A stretch of DNA of 64,000 nt, taken from the NCBI GenBank assembly GCA_965279375.1, contig OZ257156.1:2944001-3008000 (forward strand). Direction: 5' to 3'. This DNA comes from Gemmatimonas sp. GTDB lineage: Bacteria; Gemmatimonadota; Gemmatimonadetes; Gemmatimonadales; Gemmatimonadaceae. The position numbers and the translations under genes are program-made. Shown here piece by piece: positions 100-13,419 of this stretch (its first letter is position 1; each line of letters opens with the position of its first letter). The notes beneath the pieces are model-generated. The model did not search any database, had not been told where the DNA came from, and worked only from the letters and a program-made list of their open reading frames with translations.

Positions 100-3000
100 A
101 TGATGCGTCACGCCATACCTAACCACTCCATGCACCCTTCCCGCGAATCGTCGCGATCGGTCACGCCACAGCGCCTCGCGCTGCGTTCGCTCGCGTCCAT
201 GTTCGTCCTCGCGACGGCGGCGGTGCCTGCAGCCGCACAGTCGCCATCGGGTACGCGCCTGTTGCGCACGCCAAGCGTGAGCGCGTCGCACATCGCCTTC
301 GCGTACGCCAACAACATCTGGGTGGCCGAACGTTCGGGCGGTGCAGCGCGACGTCTGACGAGCTTCCAGGGGCAGACGCAGTTCCCCAAGCTGTCGCCCG
401 ACGGCCAGACGATCGCGTTCAGCGCGGAATACGGCGGCAATACCGACGTCTACACCGTACCAGTCGAGGGCGGTCAGCCGAAGCGGGTTACGTGGCATCC
501 TTCCGCAGACTTGGTGCAGGGATGGACGCCCGACGGCAAGTCGATCGTCTTCGCGAGCACACGTGCGACGTGGGCGCCGAGTGCGGCGCCACGCTTCTGG
601 ATGATTCCGGCAGTCGGCGGCGTGGAGGAGGCGATGCCGATGCCGCGCGCATATCAGGGCAAGCTGTCGCCGGACGGCAAGCGCATCGCGTATCGGATGC
701 CCAGCTCGTGGGATGAAGAGCGCCGCAACTATCGCGGCGGGCAGAACCGTCCGATCTGGATTCTGGATCTGCAGACATTCGCGCTGGATACGACGCCCTT
801 TGCCGGATCGAAGGAGATGGACCCGGCGTGGGTGGGCGACCTCGTGTACTTCCTTTCCGATCGCGATGGGGTGTCGAATGTGTGGAGCTACGACACCAAG
901 TCGAAGAAGCTCACGCAGGCGACATCGTTCAGCGATTTCGATGTGAAGTCGCTCGACGCGGGTGCGGGCGTGGTGGTGTTCGAGCAGGCGGGATACATCC
1001 ACGAGCTCGATCCCAAGACGAACAAGTCGAAGATCGTCAGCATCACGACGGCCGGCGACTTCCCGTGGATGATGGCGCAGTGGAAGGACGTCTCGTCACG
1101 CATCAGCAACCTCTCGCTGTCGAGCACGGGCAAGCGTGCGGCGGTGGAAGCGCGCGGCGAGATCTTCACGATCCCGGCGGAGAAGGGTGACGTTCGCAAT
1201 CTCACGAACGCGGGTGGCAGTGCGGAGATTCTTCCCACGTGGTCGCCTGATGGCAGCCGCGTGGCGTACTTCAGCGACAAGAGCGGTGAGTACAAGCTGG
1301 TGATTGCGAATCAGGACGGTCTGGGCACGCCCCGTGAGATCGTGCTGCCGGAACCCAGTCGTCCGTATGCGCCCGCATGGTCGCCGAACGGCCGGAAGAT
1401 CACCTTTCAGGATTCCCACTTCCGCATCTGGCTGGTGGATGTGGCGACGGGTACGGCGAAGGTGGCGGACAACGATCCGTACTTCGCAGCGGATCGTTCG
1501 ATAGTGGCGACGTGGAGCCCGGACTCGCGTTGGCTGGCGTATCCCAAGCGGCTCAAGTCGCTCTATCGCGCGATCTTCGTCTACGATGTCGAGACCGGTA
1601 CGAAGAAGCAGATCACCGACGCGATGGCCGATGCCACCGAGCCCACGTGGGACGCGAGCGGCAAGTATCTGTGGTTTTTCGCGAGCACCAACTTCGGCCT
1701 GCACTCGTCGCTGCTGGACATGTCGGCTTACGACAAGCCGGAGACCAAGGCGCTGTACCTGACGGTGCTGAGCAACACCGAGGCGAGTCCGTTGCTTCCG
1801 GAGAGCGATGACGAACGCGCACGGAGCGACAGTGCGCGCACGACGCCGCCGGCGGCGGGCGGAGCTGTGGCGAGCGATTCATCGCGGACCGCGGCGCCGG
1901 CACTCGCGGCGGGACGTACGGTGCGCATTGATTTCGATGGTATTCAGCAGCGCGTGATGGCGGTGCCGGGTATCGCCGAGCGTGACTACTCGCTGTTGCG
2001 CGCAGGGCCGTCGGGCTCGGTGTTCTTCTGGGAGCCGATTCCGGCCACGGGCACGAACGCAGGCGGTCCCGGTGGCGCGGGCGGCACCATTCATCGCTTT
2101 CAGCTGAGTGCACGTCGCGCGCAGCCGTTCGTGATGGGCGCCGCGCAGTACGTCGTGAGCGGCGACGGGAAGAAGCTGCTCTATCGCACCGGCGGCGCGC
2201 AGGGCGGGCTCTATCTGGTGGATGCGGACAAGGCGGCGCCTGCGGCCGGCACCGGACGGTTAAACGCCACGCTTCGCGCGTACATCGATCCGCGCGACGA
2301 GTTCCGGCAGATCTTCAACGAAGGGTGGCGCAACGAGCGCAACAATCTCTACGTGCAGAACATGCACGGCAGCGATTGGCCCGCGATGAAGCAGATGTAT
2401 GAGCCGTTGCTGGCGCACGTGATGCATCGCGCGGACCTCAACTACCTGATGGACATGATGGGCGCGGAGATCGCGATCGGGCATTCGTACGTGCGCGGCG
2501 GCGATATCCCCGAGGTGCCGAACGCCAACGGCGGCCTGCTCGGTGCGGATTTCACGATCGATCAGGGGCGCTATCGTATCGCCAAGATCTATGATACCGA
2601 GACGTGGAACCCCGAACTGCGTGCGCCGCTCTCGATGCCCGGCGTTGCGGTGCGCGCGGGCGACTACGTGCTCGCGATCAACGGTGTGGAGTTGCGCGCG
2701 CCGGAGAACATGTATCGTCTGCTGGATGGAACGGCGAACCGCCAAACGGTTCTGACGATCAACTCGCGTCCTGTGATGGACGGTGCGCGTCAGATCACGG
2801 TGGTTCCCGTCGCGAACGAGCAGGGGCTGCGTACGCGGGCGTGGGTGGAGCGCAATCGTCGCATCGTGGACTCGTTGTCCGGCGGCAAGTTGGCGTATGT
2901 CTATCTGCCGAACACGGGACAGCCGGGCTACACGAGCTTCAACCGCTACTACTTCGCGCAGCAGGATCGCATTGGCGTGGTCGTCGACGAGCGCTACAAC

Positions 3001-3510
3001 GGCGGCGGCTCCGCGGCGGACTACATCGTCGATTTGTTGGGTCGTGACTTCGACGGCTACTTCAACAACCCCGTTGGTGAGCGCTACCCGTACACCAGCC
3101 CCGCGAACGGCATCTGGGGCCCGAAGGTGATGATCATCAACGAGATGGCGGGCAGCGGTGGCGACCTCATGCCGTTCATGTTCAAGCGGCGGAAGTTGGG
3201 GACGCTGGTGGGCAAGCGGACGTGGGGCGGACTCGTCGCCACGACTGACACGCCGCCGTTCGTTGACGGGGGTTCGATGATTGCGCCGCGCTTTGGCTTC
3301 TTCGATCGCAACGACAAGTTTGCGGTGGAGAACGAAGGCGTCGCACCGGACATCGACGTCGAGAACTGGCCCAAGGATGTGATCGCTGGACACGATCCGC
3401 AGCTCGAGCGTGCGGTGCAGGAAGGGCTGCGGCTGATCAACGCGAAGGCGAGCGATCGTGCAGCCAAGGAGCCGGTGGCGCCGGTGTGGGGGAAGCGGAT
3501 CAAGAAGTGA
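100..3510 (+). CDS. Tricorn-like protease (peptidase S41; beta-propellers, PDZ, catalytic domain), probably exported
   Basis: Signal-peptide-like segment (FVLATAAVPAAAQ), TRLLRTPSVS start of mature protein, repeated W/LSPDG propeller motifs, YVYLPNT, DERYNGGG, catalytic AGSGGD, GKRTWGG, ENEGVAPDIDV. True start may be a later ATG. Confidence 0.93.
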   Translation: MMRHAIPNHSMHPSRESSRSVTPQRLALRSLASMFVLATAAVPAAAQSPSGTRLLRTPSVSASHIAFAYANNIWVAERSGGAARRLTSFQGQTQFPKLSPDGQTIAFSAEYGGNTDVYTVPVEGGQPKRVTWHPSADLVQGWTPDGKSIVFASTRATWAPSAAPRFWMIPAVGGVEEAMPMPRAYQGKLSPDGKRIAYRMPSSWDEERRNYRGGQNRPIWILDLQTFALDTTPFAGSKEMDPAWVGDLVYFLSDRDGVSNVWSYDTKSKKLTQATSFSDFDVKSLDAGAGVVVFEQAGYIHELDPKTNKSKIVSITTAGDFPWMMAQWKDVSSRISNLSLSSTGKRAAVEARGEIFTIPAEKGDVRNLTNAGGSAEILPTWSPDGSRVAYFSDKSGEYKLVIANQDGLGTPREIVLPEPSRPYAPAWSPNGRKITFQDSHFRIWLVDVATGTAKVADNDPYFAADRSIVATWSPDSRWLAYPKRLKSLYRAIFVYDVETGTKKQITDAMADATEPTWDASGKYLWFFASTNFGLHSSLLDMSAYDKPETKALYLTVLSNTEASPLLPESDDERARSDSARTTPPAAGGAVASDSSRTAAPALAAGRTVRIDFDGIQQRVMAVPGIAERDYSLLRAGPSGSVFFWEPIPATGTNAGGPGGAGGTIHRFQLSARRAQPFVMGAAQYVVSGDGKKLLYRTGGAQGGLYLVDADKAAPAAGTGRLNATLRAYIDPRDEFRQIFNEGWRNERNNLYVQNMHGSDWPAMKQMYEPLLAHVMHRADLNYLMDMMGAEIAIGHSYVRGGDIPEVPNANGGLLGADFTIDQGRYRIAKIYDTETWNPELRAPLSMPGVAVRAGDYVLAINGVELRAPENMYRLLDGTANRQTVLTINSRPVMDGARQITVVPVANEQGLRTRAWVERNRRIVDSLSGGKLAYVYLPNTGQPGYTSFNRYYFAQQDRIGVVVDERYNGGGSAADYIVDLLGRDFDGYFNNPVGERYPYTSPANGIWGPKVMIINEMAGSGGDLMPFMFKRRKLGTLVGKRTWGGLVATTDTPPFVDGGSMIAPRFGFFDRNDKFAVENEGVAPDIDVENWPKDVIAGHDPQLERAVQEGLRLINAKASDRAAKEPVAPVWGKRIKK

Positions 3511-3633: not shown

Positions 3634-5847
3634 ATGCCGGCTGCTCCGCACGATCTAGACGCGTTCCGCACGCAATACCGCGCATTCATTAGCGACCTGA
3701 TGCGTGCGGTCGGGGGCGACGGCTCGTCGCCCCCGCAGTGGCTGCGCCTTCTCGAGGCGCAGCCATTTGAGTTTCCCAATGGGATTCCCGTCAATGCGGA
3801 CACCATCGCACTGCGAGGCCGTCTGCTTGCGCTGGTAGTGATGGCGGCTGATGACGATGCGTACGCGCGCGCTGCGTCGGCGGAGGTACGCCGCATGCTC
3901 TCCGTCGATGCAGATGAGGATGCGCAGTCGGAGGAAATCACCCGGGGCCCCACGCGCGGCTCTACGCGTGGGCCGACACGAGGCCCGAAGCGGAGTCGAC
4001 CGACGGCGATGGCAGAGCCACCGGACCGGCTCGACTTCGGCGCAGACGATGGCGGCGGCGGCGTGTCGAGCAAGCCTCCCACGGGTGCGTCTGCTGGCTC
4101 GGCGCCCGACGATGGACTGCTCAGCGCGGACCCGCTGGTGACGCGCAGCGTGGACTCCGACGAGGCGGCGCCTGCTGCAGCGGCGGCGCCAGCGACGCCG
4201 GCAGCACCACCCGTCGCTGCGCCGCCGCGCTACATGAATGCGGGGATCAAGGGGCAGGACCGCGACGATCCGCTGGTGGTGGGCGAGATGTACGTGCTGC
4301 AGTTCGGCGTCGATATGAAAAAGGGTGGCGAGACGGGCACCGACTTCGCCGCACGCATCCCTGACGTGAGTGTGCTGCTTCGCCCGGAGGAGGACTCGGG
4401 GGAACTCACCATTCAACTCGATGGCGACGCGTTCGACATTCCGACGCGAACGCAGGTGCTGCAAGTGCCGCGCACCGGGCCATCAGCTCGCAAGGTGAGC
4501 TTCGCGATCACGCCGACGCGTGAAGGGCGCGCGACACTGACGGCAACCGTGCACAAGGCGGGCAACTTTCTGTTCGAAATGGAGCTGTCGTACTCCGTTG
4601 GCGTGGTCGACGCGCGGCCGGCGACGACGGAGGTGCATGGACGCGCCCTCAGTGCGGCGAGCGCGATCATGCCGCGCGAGTTGGGACTTCGTATCAAGCC
4701 GGTGGAGAGCGGCTACGAATGCACCGTGTGGGGGGAGGTCAACAATCAGGTCACGTTGCCCATCACGACGGTCGAGCTCAAGGAGATGGTCGCGCGCGCG
4801 CGTGACGCGATGATGGATGTGGTGCTGCATGCGAACAGCGCGAACATCAAGATCTTCCAGCAGTCGGTGGACATCGACGATGCTTCGCGTGAGTACGCAT
4901 TGAAGACGCTCGCCTTCGCCGGTGCGGAGCTGTTTCAGCGCTTGTTCTACGGGCCTTCGGCTGGACCAGAGGTGAATCTCGTGGGCGACTGGCTGCGCGC
5001 ACGCGCCTCAAAGCCCGGACGCGTGCTCAAACTGCAGATCGTCGCGGAGCGATTCCCGATTCCGTGGGGACTGCTCTACATGGGCGAGACGGCGGACGGT
5101 GCCGCGCTCGACTGGCAGCACTTTCTTGGGATGCGGCACATCATCGAGCAGATCCCGCGTCAGGCGAACATGCTCGTCGATGACTTCGTGATTCCGAGCG
5201 ACGCCCCGTCGCTGGCGGTGAGCGTCACCGTGAATACCGGCATCGACGTGCAGATGAAGCGCGAGCTGGTCGCCCCTCAGGTGAAGTACTGGACGGATCG
5301 CGGTGCGTCACCCAAGAACGACGTGCAGCTGCAACAGCGGACCACCAAAGCCGACTTGATCAAGGCGTTGCGTTCGCAAAGCGCCGAGCAAGTGATGTAC
5401 CTGTACTGTCATGCCATCACGAGTGGCGTGAACGATCCGGGGGGCATCATGGCATCGTGTCTGGTGCTCTCCGGCGACGAACGCGTGACGCTGGGTGAAC
5501 TCAACCGCGAAGCGCCGATGCGCCAGGCGCTCCCGGGAAATCCGCTGGTGTTTCTCAATGCCTGCGAGTCTGCAGAGCTTACGCCGGAATTCTACGACGG
5601 CTTTGTGCCGTACTTCATGGCGAAGGGCGCGCGCGGCGTCGTCGGTACGGAGTGCAAGACACCGGCGCTGTTCGCCACGGCGTGGGCACAGGAGTTCTTC
5701 CCGCGCTTTCTCGCCGGTCAGCCGCTTGGCGAACTGTTTCGCGATTTGCGCAGTGAGTTTTGTCTCAAGCACGGCAATCCGCTCGGTCTTCTCTATGCCG
5801 TGTACTGTGATGGCGACACGCAGATTCAACCTGGCCTTCCTTCCTGA
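3634..5847 (+). CDS. CHAT (caspase-like) domain protein with helical N-terminus, low-complexity linker and beta-rich middle domain
   Basis: CHAT motifs FPIPWGLLY, YLYCHA (His), PLVFLNACES (Cys), GARGVVGTE, NPLGLLYAVYCD. Ala/Pro/Gly/Asp-rich linker at about aa 90-200. Confidence 0.85.
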   Translation: MPAAPHDLDAFRTQYRAFISDLMRAVGGDGSSPPQWLRLLEAQPFEFPNGIPVNADTIALRGRLLALVVMAADDDAYARAASAEVRRMLSVDADEDAQSEEITRGPTRGSTRGPTRGPKRSRPTAMAEPPDRLDFGADDGGGGVSSKPPTGASAGSAPDDGLLSADPLVTRSVDSDEAAPAAAAAPATPAAPPVAAPPRYMNAGIKGQDRDDPLVVGEMYVLQFGVDMKKGGETGTDFAARIPDVSVLLRPEEDSGELTIQLDGDAFDIPTRTQVLQVPRTGPSARKVSFAITPTREGRATLTATVHKAGNFLFEMELSYSVGVVDARPATTEVHGRALSAASAIMPRELGLRIKPVESGYECTVWGEVNNQVTLPITTVELKEMVARARDAMMDVVLHANSANIKIFQQSVDIDDASREYALKTLAFAGAELFQRLFYGPSAGPEVNLVGDWLRARASKPGRVLKLQIVAERFPIPWGLLYMGETADGAALDWQHFLGMRHIIEQIPRQANMLVDDFVIPSDAPSLAVSVTVNTGIDVQMKRELVAPQVKYWTDRGASPKNDVQLQQRTTKADLIKALRSQSAEQVMYLYCHAITSGVNDPGGIMASCLVLSGDERVTLGELNREAPMRQALPGNPLVFLNACESAELTPEFYDGFVPYFMAKGARGVVGTECKTPALFATAWAQEFFPRFLAGQPLGELFRDLRSEFCLKHGNPLGLLYAVYCDGDTQIQPGLPS
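3940..3987 (+). repeat. In-frame tandem repeat encoding TRGP-TRGS-TRGP-TRGP
   Basis: acc cgg ggc ccc / acg cgc ggc tct / acg cgt ggg ccg / aca cga ggc ccg: four 12-bp units, near-identical in protein and divergent in DNA. Confidence 0.9.
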
Positions 5848-5857
5848 GGAATTCTGA

Positions 5858-7237
5858 ATGCCTGTACGCACTATTCCGGGCACGAATGTGCAGTACCATC
5901 TGATTAATTTCGACGCCGACGGCGTCGAGCGGGCGGAGAGCGATGGCACCATGCTGAGCGCCGAAGTTCGGGCACGCATTGCGTCGTCCACCGATCCAAT
6001 CAGCGACGTGTTCTTCTGCAGCCATGGGTGGCAGGGTGACATACCCGCCGCCATCGCGCAGTACGACAAATGGGTGGCCGCGATGGCTGCCTCGCCAGAC
6101 TTCGCGGTCGCGAAGGCCAAGCGCCCCGGCTTTTCACCGATCGTTGTCGGGGTGCACTGGCCCAGCCTGCCGTATGGCGATGAGAACCTGCCCGAAGCCG
6201 GCGTGCTCGGCGTGGATGATGGCACGCAGATCGAGGCACAGATCGATGCGTTCGCCGCGACGATTTCCAACACGAAAGCGGCACGTGATGCAATTCGCGT
6301 GATTCTGACTGCCGCGCAGCAGGATGACGGCGAGCGCGAGACGTTGCCCGAGCACGTGCGCAATGCGTACGAGCTGCTCGCGTTGGAGGCTGCACTGCCG
6401 GACGGTGGCAGCAATCCGGGTGGACCACCGGGAGAGGAGTTGGGCGCGTGGGATGCGGACGCGCTCTACGCTGATGCCCGAGAGATTGCGAAGACAGATG
6501 GCGCTTCGGATGGCGAAGGAGCGCCGGGTTTGCTGAGCGGAGGATTCTTCGGCAAGCTCAAGGGGCTGGTCGTCGCGCCGCTGCAGCAGATGTCGTTCTG
6601 GAAGATGAAGGATCGTGCGCGATCCATCGGTGAAGGCGGCGTGCACTCATTGCTCATCTCGCTGCAGGAAGCCTCCGAGCCCAGCACGCAGTTCCATCTC
6701 ATGGGGCACAGCTTTGGCTGCATCGTGATGTCGGCGACCGTCGCAGGCGCTGCGAACGGCGCGCCGCTCAAGCGGCCGGTCGATTCGCTTTTTCTGGTAC
6801 AGGGCGCGGTATCGCTGTGGTCGTACTCGCCCAACATTCCCGTCGAGCCCGGAAAGGTGGGCTACTTCAATCGCATTCTTGCGCAGAAGCTGGTGCGCGG
6901 GCCCATCGTGACGACGCAGTCGTCGCACGACACAGCCGTGGGCAAGCTCTATCCCGCAGCGGTACGCGTGAAGTCGCAGTTCCTGCTCGGCGACGAATAC
7001 CCGAAGTACGGCGGCATCGGGACGTTCGGCATTCAAGGTGTCGGCGACATCGGACAGAACCTCGAGATGTCTGACGCCACGCACCAGTATGCGTTCAAGC
7101 CGGGGCGTGTCTACAATCTCGAGTCGAGTGGGATCATCAAGGTGAGCAGCGGCCTGGCTTCCGGTGCGCACAGCGACATCGCCCATCCGGAAGTGGCGCA
7201 CGCCTTCTGGCAGGCTGTTCTCCACTCGGCCGCGTGA
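5858..7237 (+). CDS. Alpha/beta-hydrolase fold protein (putative lipase/esterase), cytoplasmic
   Basis: Oxyanion-type FCSHGW, GVHWPS, nucleophile elbow HLMGHSFG, candidate Asp in SSHDTAV, candidate His in GAHSDI. SD-like GAGGA overlaps the upstream stop. No signal peptide. Confidence 0.85.
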   Translation: MPVRTIPGTNVQYHLINFDADGVERAESDGTMLSAEVRARIASSTDPISDVFFCSHGWQGDIPAAIAQYDKWVAAMAASPDFAVAKAKRPGFSPIVVGVHWPSLPYGDENLPEAGVLGVDDGTQIEAQIDAFAATISNTKAARDAIRVILTAAQQDDGERETLPEHVRNAYELLALEAALPDGGSNPGGPPGEELGAWDADALYADAREIAKTDGASDGEGAPGLLSGGFFGKLKGLVVAPLQQMSFWKMKDRARSIGEGGVHSLLISLQEASEPSTQFHLMGHSFGCIVMSATVAGAANGAPLKRPVDSLFLVQGAVSLWSYSPNIPVEPGKVGYFNRILAQKLVRGPIVTTQSSHDTAVGKLYPAAVRVKSQFLLGDEYPKYGGIGTFGIQGVGDIGQNLEMSDATHQYAFKPGRVYNLESSGIIKVSSGLASGAHSDIAHPEVAHAFWQAVLHSAA

Positions 7238-7238
7238 C

Positions 7239-10100
7239 ATGAGCCACACCGGTACGCTTCCGGCGCCGCTTCGCGTCACGGTGACGAACGCGAACCTCAA
7301 GTTCATTCGCCATCCGATGATGGTTGGGCACTATCGCTCGATGGTGCTTACCGGCACCGAGTTGGCGATGGACATGCTGCTCGGCGGTACGATGACCACG
7401 TCGCTGCGCATGGGGCTGTATCCGGATCAACCTGGTTCGCAGCAGATCTTCCTGAATACGCATGCCAATCACGACAATCCCATGCAACCGCCGCGACCAG
7501 ACGCGGTGATTGTCGTGGGATTGGGTGAGGAAGGAAAGCTGCGCGCGCCTGCGCTGGCCAGCACGGTTCGCCAAGGCGTAATGGCGTGGGCGCAGCGACT
7601 GCAGGGCAGTTCGGCCAAGAAGGTACCGTCGTTCGAACTGGCCGCATCGCTGATCGGCAGTAGCGGCTCCGGAAACAACGCTGGACAGGCGGCGCGATTG
7701 GTCGCTCAGGGCGTACGTGACGCCAACATACGCCTGCTCGAAGCGGGATGGCCCATCGTGCAGCACCTGCATCTCGTCGAGTTGTTTCTCGATCGTGCGA
7801 CGGAAGCGTGGCGCTCGCTGCAGATACTCGCCACGGCGTCGCCGGGCGAGTTCGTGATCTCGCCGTTCTTGCAGACGGGGCTGGGTGGCTTGCAGCGTCC
7901 ACTCAACCCGAGCTATCGCGGGTCGGAGTTCGACCTGATCACTGCGGTCACGCAGCAGGACAGTCACGGCGACTCGCTGATTGCATATACGGTCGATACG
8001 CGACGTGCTCGCACCGAAGTGCGCGCGCAGACAACGCAGATCAAACTGCTGCGCGAGCTCACCACGAGCGCCGCCGACAACGAGAGCACGGACAAGCAAA
8101 TCGGCCGCTCGCTCTTTCGCCTGCTCGTTCCGTTGGAGATGCAGCCGTTTCTCGGTGGCTCCGATGCGATGGTCATCGAATTGGACAGCGGCACGGCGGG
8201 AATTCCGTGGGAACTGCTCGACGCGTCTACCGGAACAGAACAGGGGCGCGCCGCGATGCCGTGGGCGCTGCGCACGAAATTGCTTCGCAAGCTTCGCACG
8301 GTGGACTTCCGCATGCAGGTGCAGGATTCCACAGCCGACGCGCACGTGTTGATCATCGGCGAGCCGCGGTGCGATGATCCCGCGTTTCCGCGACTTCCCG
8401 CCGCGCGCGAGGAAGCGCGCGACATCGCGCGACTGTTCAGCAGTCAGGGAAACTTGCCGTCGGCATCGGTCAAGGAGCTGATCTGCGGCCCCGGCCCGCG
8501 TGATGTCGGCCCCGATGCGCGCACGGTCATCAACGCACTGCTCGAGCGAGACTGGCGCATCATTCACATCGCTGGCCATGGTGAGCCGCCGGACGCCGCG
8601 ACGAGTGCGTCCGCTGCCGATGGCGTGCTACGTGCCGCATCGGATCCGCGCGGGGTCGTGCTTTCCAACGGCACCTACCTTGGCCCGCGTGAGATCGCGA
8701 CGATGTCCGTCGTGCCGGAGCTGGTGTTCGTGAATTGCTGCTACACCGCGGTCAGCAATGCGGAGGACATTCTCGACGCCAGCCCCGCCGACCGCCGCGA
8801 TCGCGCGCGCTTTGCCGCGGGCGTCGCAGAAGAGCTGATCCGCATTGGGGTGCGTTGTGTGATCGCCTCTGGCTGGGCCGTGGAAGACGAGCCCGCGATG
8901 GAGTTCGCGCGCACGTTTTACCGCGAGTTGCTACAGGGCAATCGATTCATCGATGCAGTCGCTGAAGCGCGGACGGCATCGTGGAGGAAGGGCGGCAACA
9001 CGTGGGCCGCATATCAGTGCTACGGCGATCCTGACTGGCGTTTTGTGCCGGCATCGGTGGAGGTGCAGCAGTCGTCCCGAAATCCGGAAGACAAGTACGC
9101 CGGTGTGGCATCGTGGCGCGTGCTGTTGCTGGCGCTCGAGGCGCTCGCTGTCGAGAGTCGCTACAAGGGATACGATCACGACAAGGGGCGCGCGAGTCTG
9201 CTGTTGCTGGAGCAACGCTTCGCCGCCGTGTGGGGAAACATCGGTGCGGTCGCGGAGGCGTTTGGGTTGGCCTGGTCGCAGCTTGGCGACCGCAACAAGG
9301 CGATCGAGTGGTACACACGTTCGGTTGCCACCAATGACAGCAGCGCTTCAATCAAGTCGGTTCAGGAGCTGGGTAACCTGCGCGCACGCGTCGCGTTGGA
9401 GAACGCCGATGCCGTCAAGGCGATGTGCGACTCCACCGGGGACACGACAGCGCTCACGACCGCCATCAACGCGGCCCGTGAGGAGATTCGGACCGCGCTG
9501 GCGATGCTGGAGCAGGTGGCGGGACTGCAGCCGACGATCGATCGAGAGAGTCGATGCGGCTCCGCGTGGAAGCGGTTGTCCATGTTGGAGGCGATGGCTG
9601 GTGATGCCAAGGCCGAGCAGGAGGCGATCGCGCGGATGAAGGAGCGCTATGACAACGCCGAAGAGTTGGCGCGTCGGACGCAGCATCCTGAGTTGTTCTA
9701 TCCGGCATTGAACCGCATGGCGGCGGAGCTGATCGTGGCGGGCCAAGCCGAGTCGTGGCGCGGGTTCGATCCCACTCATGTAGCAGAGATTCGCGAAAGT
9801 CTGCTGGCCAAGACGCGCGACGATCCTGATTTCTGGAGCGTGTCCGGTGTGACGCAGCTACGCATGTACGAAGCGATGGCGCATCGCGCGATGGCCGCCA
9901 ACCTCGATGCGATTCTGGATGAGTATGCCTCGCTCAACGAGCGGGTCAGCGCGACGTGGCTATGGGCGTCGGTGTACGATCAGGCGCGTTGGGTGGTGCC
10001 CAAGTACATGGAACGCGTGGATGAGGTCGAAGACGAAGCGGCGCGGCGCCTACTCGAACGGCTGGCGACGTACGCGGGAGTGCGCTCAGTCACAATTTGA
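7239..10100 (+). CDS. CHAT domain protein (about 953 aa) with N-terminal alpha/beta domain and C-terminal helical/TPR-like region
   Basis: ATG 1 bp after the hydrolase stop. CHAT motifs IPWELL, LPAAREEA, IIHIAGHG (His), VFVNCC (Cys), SGWAVED, TWAAYQCYGDP. TPR-like helix pair (AFGLAWSQLGDRNKAIEWYTRSV). N-terminal VIVVGLGEEGKL resembles the leucyl-aminopeptidase N-terminal fold. Confidence 0.87.
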   Translation: MSHTGTLPAPLRVTVTNANLKFIRHPMMVGHYRSMVLTGTELAMDMLLGGTMTTSLRMGLYPDQPGSQQIFLNTHANHDNPMQPPRPDAVIVVGLGEEGKLRAPALASTVRQGVMAWAQRLQGSSAKKVPSFELAASLIGSSGSGNNAGQAARLVAQGVRDANIRLLEAGWPIVQHLHLVELFLDRATEAWRSLQILATASPGEFVISPFLQTGLGGLQRPLNPSYRGSEFDLITAVTQQDSHGDSLIAYTVDTRRARTEVRAQTTQIKLLRELTTSAADNESTDKQIGRSLFRLLVPLEMQPFLGGSDAMVIELDSGTAGIPWELLDASTGTEQGRAAMPWALRTKLLRKLRTVDFRMQVQDSTADAHVLIIGEPRCDDPAFPRLPAAREEARDIARLFSSQGNLPSASVKELICGPGPRDVGPDARTVINALLERDWRIIHIAGHGEPPDAATSASAADGVLRAASDPRGVVLSNGTYLGPREIATMSVVPELVFVNCCYTAVSNAEDILDASPADRRDRARFAAGVAEELIRIGVRCVIASGWAVEDEPAMEFARTFYRELLQGNRFIDAVAEARTASWRKGGNTWAAYQCYGDPDWRFVPASVEVQQSSRNPEDKYAGVASWRVLLLALEALAVESRYKGYDHDKGRASLLLLEQRFAAVWGNIGAVAEAFGLAWSQLGDRNKAIEWYTRSVATNDSSASIKSVQELGNLRARVALENADAVKAMCDSTGDTTALTTAINAAREEIRTALAMLEQVAGLQPTIDRESRCGSAWKRLSMLEAMAGDAKAEQEAIARMKERYDNAEELARRTQHPELFYPALNRMAAELIVAGQAESWRGFDPTHVAEIRESLLAKTRDDPDFWSVSGVTQLRMYEAMAHRAMAANLDAILDEYASLNERVSATWLWASVYDQARWVVPKYMERVDEVEDEAARRLLERLATYAGVRSVTI

Positions 10101-10245: not shown

Positions 10246-13200
10246 ATGCGACTCGATACGCGCACGATCCTGTTCGTGATCTCGCTGGTGAGTTTCACGA
10301 ATGCGATGGCGATGTTCATTGGCTGGCGCACGTATCTGCGCCAGCGACAAATGGCGTGGTGGCTGGCGTCGAGCTTCAGTTTGACGCTGGGCATCTGCTT
10401 GCTGACGCTGCGCGGCTTGGTACCCGACGTTGTGCCGGTGGTTTTCGGCAATTTTGCCGTTCTGATCAGCATGGGGACGCTGCTGATCGGCTGCGAGCTG
10501 TCCGTAGATGCACGGCCGTCGTGGCGCGGGGCCGGTTCGCTGCTCGGCGTGCTCGCTGCGGTGCATCTCTACTTCTTCTTTGGTTTCGATTCCTTCCTGG
10601 CGCGCACGGTGGTGATGTCTATTGCCTCGGCCGCCTTTCCCCTCGCGTCGGCGCGCGTGCTCTTCCGTGCGCAACGGCAGCCGTCTACGTCCACGCGATT
10701 CATTGCGGCGGGGCTGTTGTTCTTGATTGGCGGGGCGCAGGCACTTCGCGGCATCCTGGCGCTGCGCGGCGCGACGCCGACGGACCTGGTGGGTGACAAC
10801 GTCGCGGTTACGGTCAATCTGACGTTGGCACTCATGCTGTGGCTGCTGTTGTCGTTCGTGTCGATGGTGATGACGGGTGAGCGACTGCAGGAAGAGACGC
10901 GCGTGGCGCGGGCCGCGCTCGATGCGTCCACGCAGGCGGGTCTGCAGGCATTGCGCCGCAGCGAGGAGCGCTTCTCGCTCGCCGTGGAAGGATCGAATGC
11001 GGGCATCTGGGATTGGGACGTGGCGTCGAACACGTTCTTCCTGTCGGCGCTCGGCAAGTCGCTGCTTGGCTACGCCGACGACGAAGCCGAAGGGAGCTAC
11101 GAACGGTGGTTTCAGTTGCTGCACCCAGATGATTCCCCGCGTGCGGTGCAGACGATTCGTCAGTACCTGCGCAGTGGGCAATCGGAGCTGGTGCTGGAGC
11201 ATCGGTTGCGTCACCGTGACGGAACCTATCGTTGGATGCTCGGTCGCGGTGCGGCGCGACGCGATGCGGCGCTGCGTGTGTATCGCATCGCCGGCTCGAT
11301 CGAGGACATTACGGAACGTCGAACGACGGAGGATGCGCAGGAATTTCTTGCGCGCCACGCACATCTCGGGCTCGGCGAAGACTTCTTCGACTCCCTCTGT
11401 CGCTATCTCCTGCAGGCGCTCAGCGCCGATGCTGTCTTCTTCGATCGTCTCTCGGCAGATGGATCGAGCGCGGTGGTCGAAGCGTCGTGTACGATTGGAG
11501 TCATCGGCGTGCCTGCGGTGCGCGAGTTGGAGGGGAGTGCAGTTGGCGAGTGCGTGAAGGAGGGCAACTGGTCGATGCTCCGCGGCGTTCGGGAGCGCTT
11601 TCCCACCGATGCGAGGCTGCGCGCCGTTGGCGCCGAGGCGTGTGTGGGAACGACATTGCGCATGACCAATGGTCAGCCGATCGGTGTGATCACGGTCGTG
11701 ACTCGAACTCCGCTCGCGGATTCCCGGACCGCGGAGTTGCTGCTGTCGCTCTTTGCCGTGCCGGCGTCCGGTGAACTCATTCGCAAGCAGGCGGACGAGG
11801 CATTGCGGCGTCGCGAGGAGTATTCGCGGCACCTGCTGACGAGCCTCCCTGCCGGCGTGGTCGTGCATTCGCCAGACACAGCGGTGCTCGACTGTAACGC
11901 GATGGCGAGTGCGATGATGGGGCTGACGCTCGACCAGATGCGTGGCCGCACGGCCGTCGATCCATCGTGGAGTTTTGTGCGCGAGGATCGCACGACGATG
12001 ACGCTGGATGAGTATCCGGTTCGGCGTGTCGCTGCGACCGGAGCGCCCGTGAGTGGGTTGGTGGTGGGCATGCAGGTGCCTGGACGCGGTGATGTCACGT
12101 GGGCGGTGTGCAACGCCTATCCGATCGACGACGATGACGGTGCACTCTCGCAGATCGTGGTGACGTTCGTGGACGTCACGGAGCGCATCCGATCGGAGGA
12201 GGCACGCGCGCAGCTGGAGTCGCAGTTGCGACAGTCGCAGAAGATGGAGGCGGTTGGGCAGCTGGCCGGTGGAATCGCGCACGATTTCAATAACCTGCTC
12301 ACCGTGATCACCGGCATTGCGGATGTCGCCGCGCGCAGTTTGTCGCCAGAGGATCCGTTTCGTCGCGATCTCACCGACATCCAACGCGCAGGGCAGCGCG
12401 CCGCGGTGCTCACTCGTCAGCTACTCGCGTTCGGCCGCAAGCAGACCATTGCACCGGAGATTTTGAACCTTGGCGTGTTGATCGACGACTTGCAGCCACT
12501 GCTGACGCGCGTCATTCGCGAGAATATCCGCCTTGAGCTGCGGGCCTGCCGCGGCCCGTGTGAGGTGCTCGCCGATCCCGGACAGATCGAGCAGGTGCTG
12601 CTCAACCTTGCGTTGAACGCGCGGGATGCGATGCCGCACGGCGGCACGCTCACCTTCGAGCTGAGCGAGACTACGCTCGACCCGGCGTTCGTGCGCTCGC
12701 ATCCGGGCGTGCGTCCGGGGCCGCATGTGCGAATGAATGTGCGCGACACCGGCGTCGGGATGGACGAGTCCACGCGTGCGCGCGTTTTCGAACCGTTCTA
12801 TACCACCAAGGCGCCGGGGCAGGGGACTGGGCTTGGCCTGGCGACGGTGTATGGGATCGTCTCGCAGTCGCGTGGAGCCATCGAGGTGGTCAGCGCGCCG
12901 GGACAAGGCACGACGTTCTCCGTCTACCTGCCGTTGGTGCGCGGTGCGTCACACGCGGGCGAAGGATCCGCGCTCCGGGTACGCACGCCGAGGGATACGC
13001 CGTCCGTACCGATGTACGAGGTATCCGAGGAAGCATTCTCGGGGACGGGGAGCATTCTCGTGGTGGAAGACGAGGGAGCGATCCGTCGCCTCGCGCAGCG
13101 CATTCTCCAGAGTGCGGGGTACACGGTTCTGACGGCGTGCGACGGTGTGGATGCCTTGCGCGTACTCGAAGAGCGTGGCTCGGCGGTGGACCTGTTGCTG

Positions 13201-13419
13201 ACCGACGTGATCATGCCCAACATGGGCGGACCGGAGCTCGCCAAACGGCTGTCAGAGTTGCACCCGTCCACGAAGGTGCTGTACGCTTCGGGTTACGCGG
13301 GCGACGCGGAGTTGCGCCTCAACGCGATTGGCGAGTCCAGCAATTTTCTGGGCAAGCCGTATCAAGTAGTGGAGCTGACACGGAAAGTGCGAGAGATCAT
13401 GGCCACAGGCAAAGCGTGA
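10246..13419 (+). CDS. Membrane-bound hybrid sensor histidine kinase (multi-TM, PAS, GAF-like, PAS, HisKA, HATPase, REC)
   Basis: About 7 hydrophobic helices, PAS GIWDWD...LHPDD...HRDGTYRW, H-box GGIAHDFNNLL, N-box NLALNARDAM, DTGVGM, FYTTK, GTGLGL, receiver VVEDE...LLTDVIMP...KPY. Start placed at ATG 10246 (MRLDTRT). Confidence 0.95.
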   Translation: MRLDTRTILFVISLVSFTNAMAMFIGWRTYLRQRQMAWWLASSFSLTLGICLLTLRGLVPDVVPVVFGNFAVLISMGTLLIGCELSVDARPSWRGAGSLLGVLAAVHLYFFFGFDSFLARTVVMSIASAAFPLASARVLFRAQRQPSTSTRFIAAGLLFLIGGAQALRGILALRGATPTDLVGDNVAVTVNLTLALMLWLLLSFVSMVMTGERLQEETRVARAALDASTQAGLQALRRSEERFSLAVEGSNAGIWDWDVASNTFFLSALGKSLLGYADDEAEGSYERWFQLLHPDDSPRAVQTIRQYLRSGQSELVLEHRLRHRDGTYRWMLGRGAARRDAALRVYRIAGSIEDITERRTTEDAQEFLARHAHLGLGEDFFDSLCRYLLQALSADAVFFDRLSADGSSAVVEASCTIGVIGVPAVRELEGSAVGECVKEGNWSMLRGVRERFPTDARLRAVGAEACVGTTLRMTNGQPIGVITVVTRTPLADSRTAELLLSLFAVPASGELIRKQADEALRRREEYSRHLLTSLPAGVVVHSPDTAVLDCNAMASAMMGLTLDQMRGRTAVDPSWSFVREDRTTMTLDEYPVRRVAATGAPVSGLVVGMQVPGRGDVTWAVCNAYPIDDDDGALSQIVVTFVDVTERIRSEEARAQLESQLRQSQKMEAVGQLAGGIAHDFNNLLTVITGIADVAARSLSPEDPFRRDLTDIQRAGQRAAVLTRQLLAFGRKQTIAPEILNLGVLIDDLQPLLTRVIRENIRLELRACRGPCEVLADPGQIEQVLLNLALNARDAMPHGGTLTFELSETTLDPAFVRSHPGVRPGPHVRMNVRDTGVGMDESTRARVFEPFYTTKAPGQGTGLGLATVYGIVSQSRGAIEVVSAPGQGTTFSVYLPLVRGASHAGEGSALRVRTPRDTPSVPMYEVSEEAFSGTGSILVVEDEGAIRRLAQRILQSAGYTVLTACDGVDALRVLEERGSAVDLLLTDVIMPNMGGPELAKRLSELHPSTKVLYASGYAGDAELRLNAIGESSNFLGKPYQVVELTRKVREIMATGKA

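Follow-up and report, generated by a model that had tools for sequence, protein, structure and literature searches.

Several described systems resemble the locus considered here. Pairs of a caspase and an alpha/beta-hydrolase were predicted earlier (Kaur 2020, PMC7159879), and the hydrolase of LcCaspase/LcHydrolase is a cleavage-activated death effector (Evans 2025, PMC12642450), which is activated by two Arg-Gly cuts around an insert (PMC12642450). The CHAT protease of a Runella gasdermin system cuts after Leu and requires Gly at P1' (bioRxiv 2021.06.07.447441), while SAVED-CHAT was proposed to activate PCaspase in type III-B CRISPR (Steens 2023, bioRxiv 2023.06.23.546230). In Thoeris II, a Macro domain is the receptor of an ADP-ribose derivative, and Thoeris IV has a signal-activated Arg-specific caspase (bioRxiv 2024.10.24.620036; 10.64898/2025.12.03.692087). 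Here, we analyzed a stretch of 64,000 nucleotides of Gemmatimonas sp. (contig OZ257156.1, positions 2,944,001 to 3,008,000; hereafter the window), which carries three adjacent genes, named A (a CHAT protease), B (an alpha/beta-hydrolase) and C (a second CHAT protease). Together they probably act as a switch: one protease would cleave an inactive, lipase-like enzyme after three leucines, perhaps when signalled by the second protease. Such a switch would be similar to known protease-triggered self-destruct defences, from which it differs in the enzyme and in the predicted cut sites.

Similar to the LcHydrolase module, the locus places a cytoplasmic alpha/beta-hydrolase beside a caspase-fold protease with an intact dyad, the sensor partners are many, and two of the candidate cut sites of B lie on either side of an insert located after the first strands of the core (compared by eye with the published sequence). 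Unlike LcHydrolase, which has 296 amino acids (aa), B has 459 aa and three Leu sites in loops instead of two Arg-Gly sites. The single RG of B, at residue 347, lies in the core, and B was not placed in the LcHydrolase family because it lacks this Arg-Gly loop feature. A motif scan for that family found no member in the window's own genome or the surveyed loci, B and LcHydrolase being compared as sequences by eye alone. The partner of B is, unlike the Lc caspase, a CHAT or C25 protease, which is often fused to it, and an extra CHAT protease, C, is present here. Like the Runella CHAT, A is predicted to cut between a Leu and a P1' Gly of an exposed loop, cleavage of which would release the effector, but the effector is an enzyme with three sites rather than a pore former, and A has no Roc-COR part. 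The proposal that a CHAT protease with a ligand domain activates a second caspase-fold protease is shared with SAVED-CHAT/PCaspase; however, C has a Macro fold and not SAVED, no CRISPR gene is present among the scanned neighbours, and the second protease here, unlike PCaspase, is a CHAT protease with a dedicated predicted substrate. Unlike in Thoeris, no TIR gene is adjacent, and the Macro fold, CHAT and a TPR-S-like region are joined in one chain of C, whose ligand binding is putative.

A preliminary description of this locus, made from the sequence alone, had considered the architecture distinct, leaving aside whether it had been described. As a class, both caspase-hydrolase effectors and a CHAT-to-caspase cascade are already published, while the Leu sites and the CHAT or C25 partners set this locus apart. 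Our literature search, with subscription papers and some supplementary family lists mostly outside it, found nothing about the B family, a switch of sites between Leu and Phe, or a Macro-CHAT-TPR-S protein; the available text of PMC8195603 mentions hydrolases merely as generic effectors and does not mention C25.

Partner Proteases and Loop Motifs of the Hydrolase

Relatives of B were surveyed in 105 loci. Nine short or repeat loci (L008-L015, L026) were dropped, as were L056 and L063, in which the B frame is incomplete; with B of the window added, 95 sequences remained, and these were grouped at 90% into 83 clusters. The metagenomic part of this survey consists of the best 80 of 494 relatives and is therefore biased towards close kin. 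The B locus contains an A-type CHAT protease in 41 clusters, a C25 protease in 22, an S8 protease in five and none in 15. A protease of these three kinds is thus found near B in 68 of the 83 clusters, the other 15 lying mostly on short contigs, and 17 clusters have A and B in a single fused protein. The conserved unit is the A-B pair rather than the triad of the preliminary description, and C is facultative. Its protease-zymogen logic, by contrast, fits these data, as A and B are adjacent or fused across phyla and the loop motifs of B track the partner protease.

Words of the form [VLF]L[GS] occur exactly three times in B, ending at L117, L226 and L377, and occupy three of its five segments with a predicted local distance difference test (pLDDT) below 50; [VLIMT]L-[GSAD] is the general motif of these three predicted disordered loops. 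Sites 1 and 2 bracket a helical insert, and a short strand is predicted at site 3. Among clusters with an A partner, Leu is found at 40/41 (site 1), 39/40 readable (site 2) and 41/41 (site 3), compared with 8.1 (site 1) and 11.4 (site 2) Leu motifs in window shuffles and 0/41 in a fourth flexible loop, which served as control. Clusters with a C25 partner carry Phe or Tyr instead (22/22, 21/22 and 21/22; shuffles, 9.8 and 11.4), with Leu in only 1, 0 and 1 of them, whereas the five S8-partner clusters have neither motif where readable. Site 3 was scored by alignment column, which replaced a looser motif typing that gave mixed calls.

Several observations weigh against reading these motifs as cut sites matched to the protease. 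The motif patterns were drawn up after the sequences were viewed. In a tree built without the loops by a quick method (76 rows), the Phe-type B proteins form one clade (Shimodaira-Hasegawa-like approximate likelihood ratio test 95), with L007 outside it on a long branch, so that the Leu/Phe covariation counts as about one evolutionary event. The C25 propeptides do not track the residue of B (Phe in seven, Leu in eight and neither in three of the rows listed). Sites 1 and 2 are absent from the A-class cluster L047 and from G091, and CHAT-STAND genes are often also present in C25 loci, which bears on the question of which protease cuts B there. Even so, it is likely that A cuts B at the three Leu sites, and, by analogy, somewhat less firmly expected that cutting activates B; this reading is favoured because the loop motifs track the partner, recur in the linker of A, and agree with a known CHAT protease that cuts between Leu and Gly. 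Complex prediction of A (residues 199-737) with B scored 0.01 twice, with the controls not folded, and was used neither way.

B together with an intracellular gingipain-like C25 protease looks like a sister system. Such loci (L020, L022, L060, L066, L077, L085, L093, L097, L100 and others), which often also encode a CHAT-nSTAND1-WD40 protein, have Phe in all three loops of B, and their C25 proteins have a conserved hydrophobic position after an N-terminal segment of 55-75 residues. An echo of B's Phe in the C25 propeptide was sought as a candidate and not found. Distant B relatives follow directly after an S8 subtilase in L018, L019, L024 and L025, without Leu or Phe motifs where readable, and further ones were matched in G061, G062 and G063. 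In L047 (5321-12321) and L130 (184-6821), a B without sites 1 and 2 is followed by a protein of 1750-1880 aa with a Macro domain and also caspase-like, Ig or VMAP-M1 parts, and by a further CHAT.

Fold and Family of the Hydrolase

The Ser-Asp-His set of B that had been noticed before is confirmed, since S285 (in GHSFG), D358 and H438 are kept in 83, 82 and 82 of the 83 clusters. Its predicted structure has an alpha/beta-hydrolase fold (predicted template-modelling score 0.85) with a helical insertion. The best structural neighbour has Z 13.1 (root-mean-square deviation (rmsd) 3.9, 197 residues aligned), and hydrolases with the same fold make up most of the 50 matches listed. The top places are shared by folds of lipase, esterase and thioesterase type (Z 13.1 to 11), and the substrate of B is therefore not narrowed to one class. 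Foldseek with B gave nothing at E 0.001.

The family is large and unannotated, with 2349 matches among the 8000 candidates scored, and clusters of B look-alikes carry the automatic name serine/threonine kinase. No relative of B was found among 33 pattern matches in viral contigs.

The Partner Protease

The CHAT domain (PF12770) of A was matched with 44.9 bits at residues 476-704 (cut-off 24), and its dyad, H593 and C644, is kept in 64 and 65 of 65 aligned homologs, respectively. A variable helical N-terminal domain and a low-complexity linker (residues 1-198) precede the conserved core (199-737), which consists of a beta-rich domain weakly like DUF7363 and then the CHAT domain. Single-sequence searches of the PDB yielded nothing informative for A or B. 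The sole PDB sequence match of A at E < 0.01 is the CHAT domain of 8ROT, which we take to be the anti-sigma factor DdvA. At the column where the CHAT domain of 8ROT has Asp, A carries Ala678, which fits a non-polar pocket, and A is most likely the Leu-specific protease of B, as predicted from these features and the loop motifs.

The linker of A carries motifs of its own, which were counted in 124 of 150 homologs over the 100 residues that precede the core, these linkers being unrelated to B. G[LVF]L[GS] occurs in 27 of the 124 linkers, compared with 2.0 in shuffles (maximum 8), and RGG in 25, compared with 7.7. Phe motifs (SFG, DFG and SFD) are likewise enriched, which weighs against the Leu reading. 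Among the 150 representatives of A, eight carry B, and nine of the 53 long ones carry an LCAT-type hydrolase.

Homologs of A have other attachments as well. Long polyglutamine runs precede the core in L005 (2800-3173) and L027 (1200-1382), and an A homolog in L036 (2049-2790) has an N-terminal domain that resembles, by eye, glycoside hydrolase 19 (lysozyme/chitinase).

The Second CHAT Protease

The CHAT domain of C was matched more strongly (PF12770, 99.4 bits, residues 288-597, cut-off 24), and H447 and C501 are each kept in 50 of 50 aligned homologs; the His/Cys dyads given for both proteases in the preliminary description thus lie in profile matches above cut-off and are conserved. The TPR region that it gave to one of the CHAT proteases is more equivocal, as TPR-S reaches 24.2 bits in C, below the cut-off of 27.6, and lies above cut-off in three homologs. 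NCBIfam gave for C just a caspase match below cut-off. PADLOC, which had been proposed as a check, offered no support, since no model matches A or B, and C matches only the CHAT part of SAVED_CHAT (residues 428-635).

Residues 10-205 of C fold confidently (pLDDT 85.7) into a Macro/leucyl-aminopeptidase N-domain fold. Leucyl aminopeptidase N-domains come first in the structural ranking (Z 17.5 and 16.8), above the ADP-ribose-binding macrodomain 5FUD (Z 15.6, rmsd 2.9, 169 residues aligned), while Foldseek places macrodomains first (best E 3e-6, PARP14 macro 1). The domain has a conserved Gly/Ser loop (140-145) and N17-x-[ND]19, which presumably resemble macrodomain binding loops.

In the CHAT domain, D550, which lies 49 residues after C501, is kept in 49/50 and 29/29 homologs, and we take it, by a Trp+4 register and without superposition, to be the equivalent of an Asp of separase. 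That Asp, 41 residues past the catalytic Cys, binds the P1 Arg, and Lys takes its place in a CHAT protease that is not Arg-specific, according to the available text of PMC10317155 and PMC9729208. The separase-like acid would thus be retained by C and missing from A, which makes the CHAT domain of C a candidate Arg-preferring protease.

Candidate substrates of such a protease are the TRG repeats in the linker of A. The motif xRG is present in 6/6 A linkers accompanied by C (mean 2.0), and TRG is enriched in the extensions fused to C (12 versus 2.6; 13 clusters). By eye, an Arg-Gly lies about 40-45 residues before the Macro fold in 15 of 25 Burkholderiales fusions. Against this, five of the six linkers with C are from one clade, and 12/28 A linkers without C also have xRG (mean 0.57; L004 is misfiled among them). 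In the proximal 300-500 residues of the 25 Burkholderiales fusions, TRG is not enriched (6 versus 4.1), and [TSV]RG, with 27 versus 14.5, equals the shuffle maximum. The suggestion of the preliminary description that the TPR-bearing CHAT possibly activates the other one is therefore retained as a plausible step, to which the TRG and xRG motifs point through evidence that is weak and confounded by kinship; that C cuts the TRG repeats themselves has rather less than an even chance.

Most C homologs come with hydrolases of their own. More than 400 extra N-terminal residues are present in 45/120 of them, many matching DUF7379 or LCAT, and in the order of G383 (400 genomes searched; unpublished G408 excluded) 33 published genomes match, with 33 of 35 places in frames of at least 1400 aa. 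A link to hydrolases is therefore found in two CHAT clades that are unrelated to each other, and the present locus is an A-B pair plus a C without a hydrolase of its own. C would most likely serve its own fused hydrolases normally and, having none here, act upstream of A.

Standalone C without A or B was found in G098, G077 and a Rhizobium plasmid. In the former two (L120, 2441-7518; L121, 557-5566), it stands behind an amidase-SH3 gene and is divergent from a C14 caspase, which has a Lys/Arg-rich N-terminal tail.

Proposed Mechanism

In the proposed sequence of events, C would sense a signal through its Macro-fold or TPR-S region, and its Arg-preferring CHAT domain would cut the TRG repeats in the linker of A. 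The Leu-specific CHAT of A would then cut B after L117, L226 and L377, and these cuts would remove or loosen the 11-kDa helical insert and the loop near the catalytic Asp, so that a lipase- or esterase-like enzyme may be set free from B. The whole arrangement, a protease-zymogen module of A and B with C as an upstream add-on, stands at about even chances. Should C indeed act on A, three genes would suffice to unite the sensing of a signal, a pair of initiator and executioner, and an effector dedicated to them. A more extended scheme is unlikely: an ADP-ribose-type signal from a distant TIR protein would activate an Arg-specific C, then a Leu-specific A, and then a lipase zymogen opened by three cuts, with the cut-site code rewritten from Leu to Phe upon the swap to a gingipain-like C25; if it were true, C25 peptidases would enter intracellular immunity.

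The alternative that survives best, though it is itself fairly improbable, is that no cascade exists and that A-B and C are separate modules side by side, with C cutting a host or other substrate in parallel. It agrees with the occurrence of C alongside A-B in just 6/83 clusters (seven with L004, whose contig is cut at the start of C), five of which are one clade, with the fused hydrolases and standalone forms of C, and with the xRG motifs in linkers without C. The co-occurrence of homologs that the preliminary description had proposed as a check consequently holds for A with B (41/83 clusters) and not for C. However, C joined A-B at least twice, in the genus clade and in L055, and a distant C-like gene follows B-C25 in L075; all six A linkers with C have xRG at the higher mean frequency; and A-B repeatedly has some other caspase-fold protease as a second one beside it (L036, L057, L073 and L087). 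These points weigh against separate modules.

The B family is nearly always beside a protease. From its loop motifs, predictions down to single residues follow for a second family of hydrolase zymogens, as does a predicted specificity for two uncharacterised CHAT clades and an intracellular C25 clade. Linker motifs may, in addition, let protease-substrate wiring be read from genomes.

Functional Context

The neighbours of B relatives include CHAT-nSTAND1-WD40, CHAT-SIR2, TIR and MoxR genes. The preliminary description had noted that no NLR gene is present; this is right for the locus itself, while NLR-like genes flank many B relatives. On Rhizobium leguminosarum plasmid CP050083.1 (L139, 2969-16859), a standalone C is flanked on both sides by a TIR-nSTAND1-WD40 gene, together with a glycosyl hydrolase 108, and is a candidate TIR-signal-activated protease, and a fused C stands beside restriction-modification and Fic genes in Azotobacter. 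By analogy, the slightly favoured outcome is that the cell dies or becomes dormant when phage or another invader attacks, because of these neighbourhoods of relatives and the cell-killing analogue LcHydrolase.

This defence reading is weakened because no PADLOC model matches A or B, no TIR gene adjoins the locus (six TIR_2 matches are present in its own genome, the nearest about 128 kb from A), the G+C content is genome-like, with no anomaly that would point to recent transfer, the block of A-B-C and a sensor kinase was inherited in place within one subclade, and this kinase was co-inserted. Among the four inserted genes, no MoxR, vWA or VMAP was found, while in L007 a B relative precedes a MoxR-type ATPase. 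The genes A, B and C, the tricorn and DUF4159 genes and the kinase match families other than gasdermin, for which the search did not extend to the rest of the genome.

A quite unlikely alternative is signalling through regulated proteolysis rather than defence. The proteases would then be under the control of the co-inserted kinase or of some different cue, and B would produce or degrade a signal that is a lipid or an ester. The stable place of the block across the subclade and the lack of a PADLOC model for A or B suit this view. The kinase lies directly after C in 5/6 triad genomes and is gone together with the triad at an empty site. A PAS-GAF sensor followed by a CHAT and a B-A fusion (L057, 3-7643; L087, 2628-11222) is a second link of the module to sensor kinases. 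Receiver-like N-termini were read by eye on three A homologs, and the one PDB match of A below E 0.01, 8ROT, would, if it is DdvA, belong to an anti-sigma factor. On the other side, outside the genus and L057/L087, the scanned neighbours are STAND, SIR2, TIR, MoxR and transposase genes, G035 and G076 have orthologs of the kinase but no triad, and the tested analogue, LcHydrolase, is a death effector.

Finally, it is very improbable that the motifs of B are docking or latch elements, with B activated by binding or constitutively active: the single clade-level Leu-to-Phe switch, the predicted strand at site 3 and the unmatched C25 propeptides would allow it, but the motifs lie in unconserved loops, recur in unrelated A linkers with a small residue kept after Leu, and match a measured CHAT specificity, and the dyad of A is nearly invariant.

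Genomic Location and Distribution

The three genes are co-oriented, with spacings of 10 base pairs (bp) between A and B and 1 bp between B and C on re-derived coordinates (Table 1), as described before. A GTG at 7164 was rejected as the start of C because C of a relative begins at the same MSH. A crude hydropathy scan agrees with the reported lack of signal peptides, since in A, B and C the N-terminus lacks a hydrophobic run and all windows of 19 residues stay at or below 1.54. A scan of the locus for promoters and terminators stayed at chance level. Four features had been missed earlier: the Macro fold in C, the motifs in the loops of B, the TRG repeats in the linker of A, and the co-inserted sensor kinase.

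Table 1. Positions in the window of the three genes, their candidate sites and the flanking genes.
Feature	Position	Strand	Remark
Gene A	3634-5847	+	737 aa; CHAT protease
Four TRG repeats in A linker (R104, R108, R112, R116)	3940-3984	+	Candidate Arg-Gly sites for C
GLLS, residues 161-164, in A linker	4114-4125	+	Candidate self-processing site; motif as in B loops
Gene B	5858-7237	+	459 aa; cytoplasmic alpha/beta-hydrolase, candidate zymogen, lipase/esterase-like
B site 1, L117 (GVL-G)	6206-6208	+	Candidate; low-pLDDT loop 107-121
B site 2, L226 (GLL-S)	6533-6535	+	Candidate; low-pLDDT loop 218-231
B site 3, L377 (FLL-G)	6986-6988	+	Candidate; low-pLDDT loop 368-384
Gene C	7239-10100	+	953 aa; Macro/LAP-N fold, CHAT, TPR-S-like helical region
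Macro-fold domain of C	7266-7853	+	Invariant G30-H31-Y32, G39, E41, S141, G143
Membrane hybrid sensor kinase	10246-13419 (start approximate)	+	PAS, HisKA, HATPase, receiver; passenger or regulator
Tricorn-type S41 protease	100-3510		Marks insertion site; outside the A-B-C system

The tricorn flanking gene was matched in 76 of 86 other genomes of the genus. In G078, it is followed 13 bases on by the DUF4159 gene, with A-B-C and the sensor kinase all missing, and by tricorn G078 is as close to the window's genome as the triad carriers are. In G077 and six more distant genomes, other genes follow the tricorn gene.

Many of the genus and phylum genomes surveyed are incomplete. Among the 86 genus genomes, C matches in nine and the B profile in 21, nine of them strongly, while the triad is present in six (G107, G022, G088, G025, G086 and, on two contigs, G099). 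Together with the empty site of G078, this is the patchy distribution that the preliminary description had suggested looking for. The triad carriers are all among the closest relatives by tricorn identity, G099 being without a match in the tricorn search, and orthologs of the kinase occur in 7/86 genomes. When 300 further genomes were sampled from the phylum, the A profile matched one, and no C match was found in the (incomplete) genomes of L005, L006 and L007. The window's own genome also carries distant CHAT-like frames on contig C1, at 846051-849338, 907337-910999 and 2200086-2202359.

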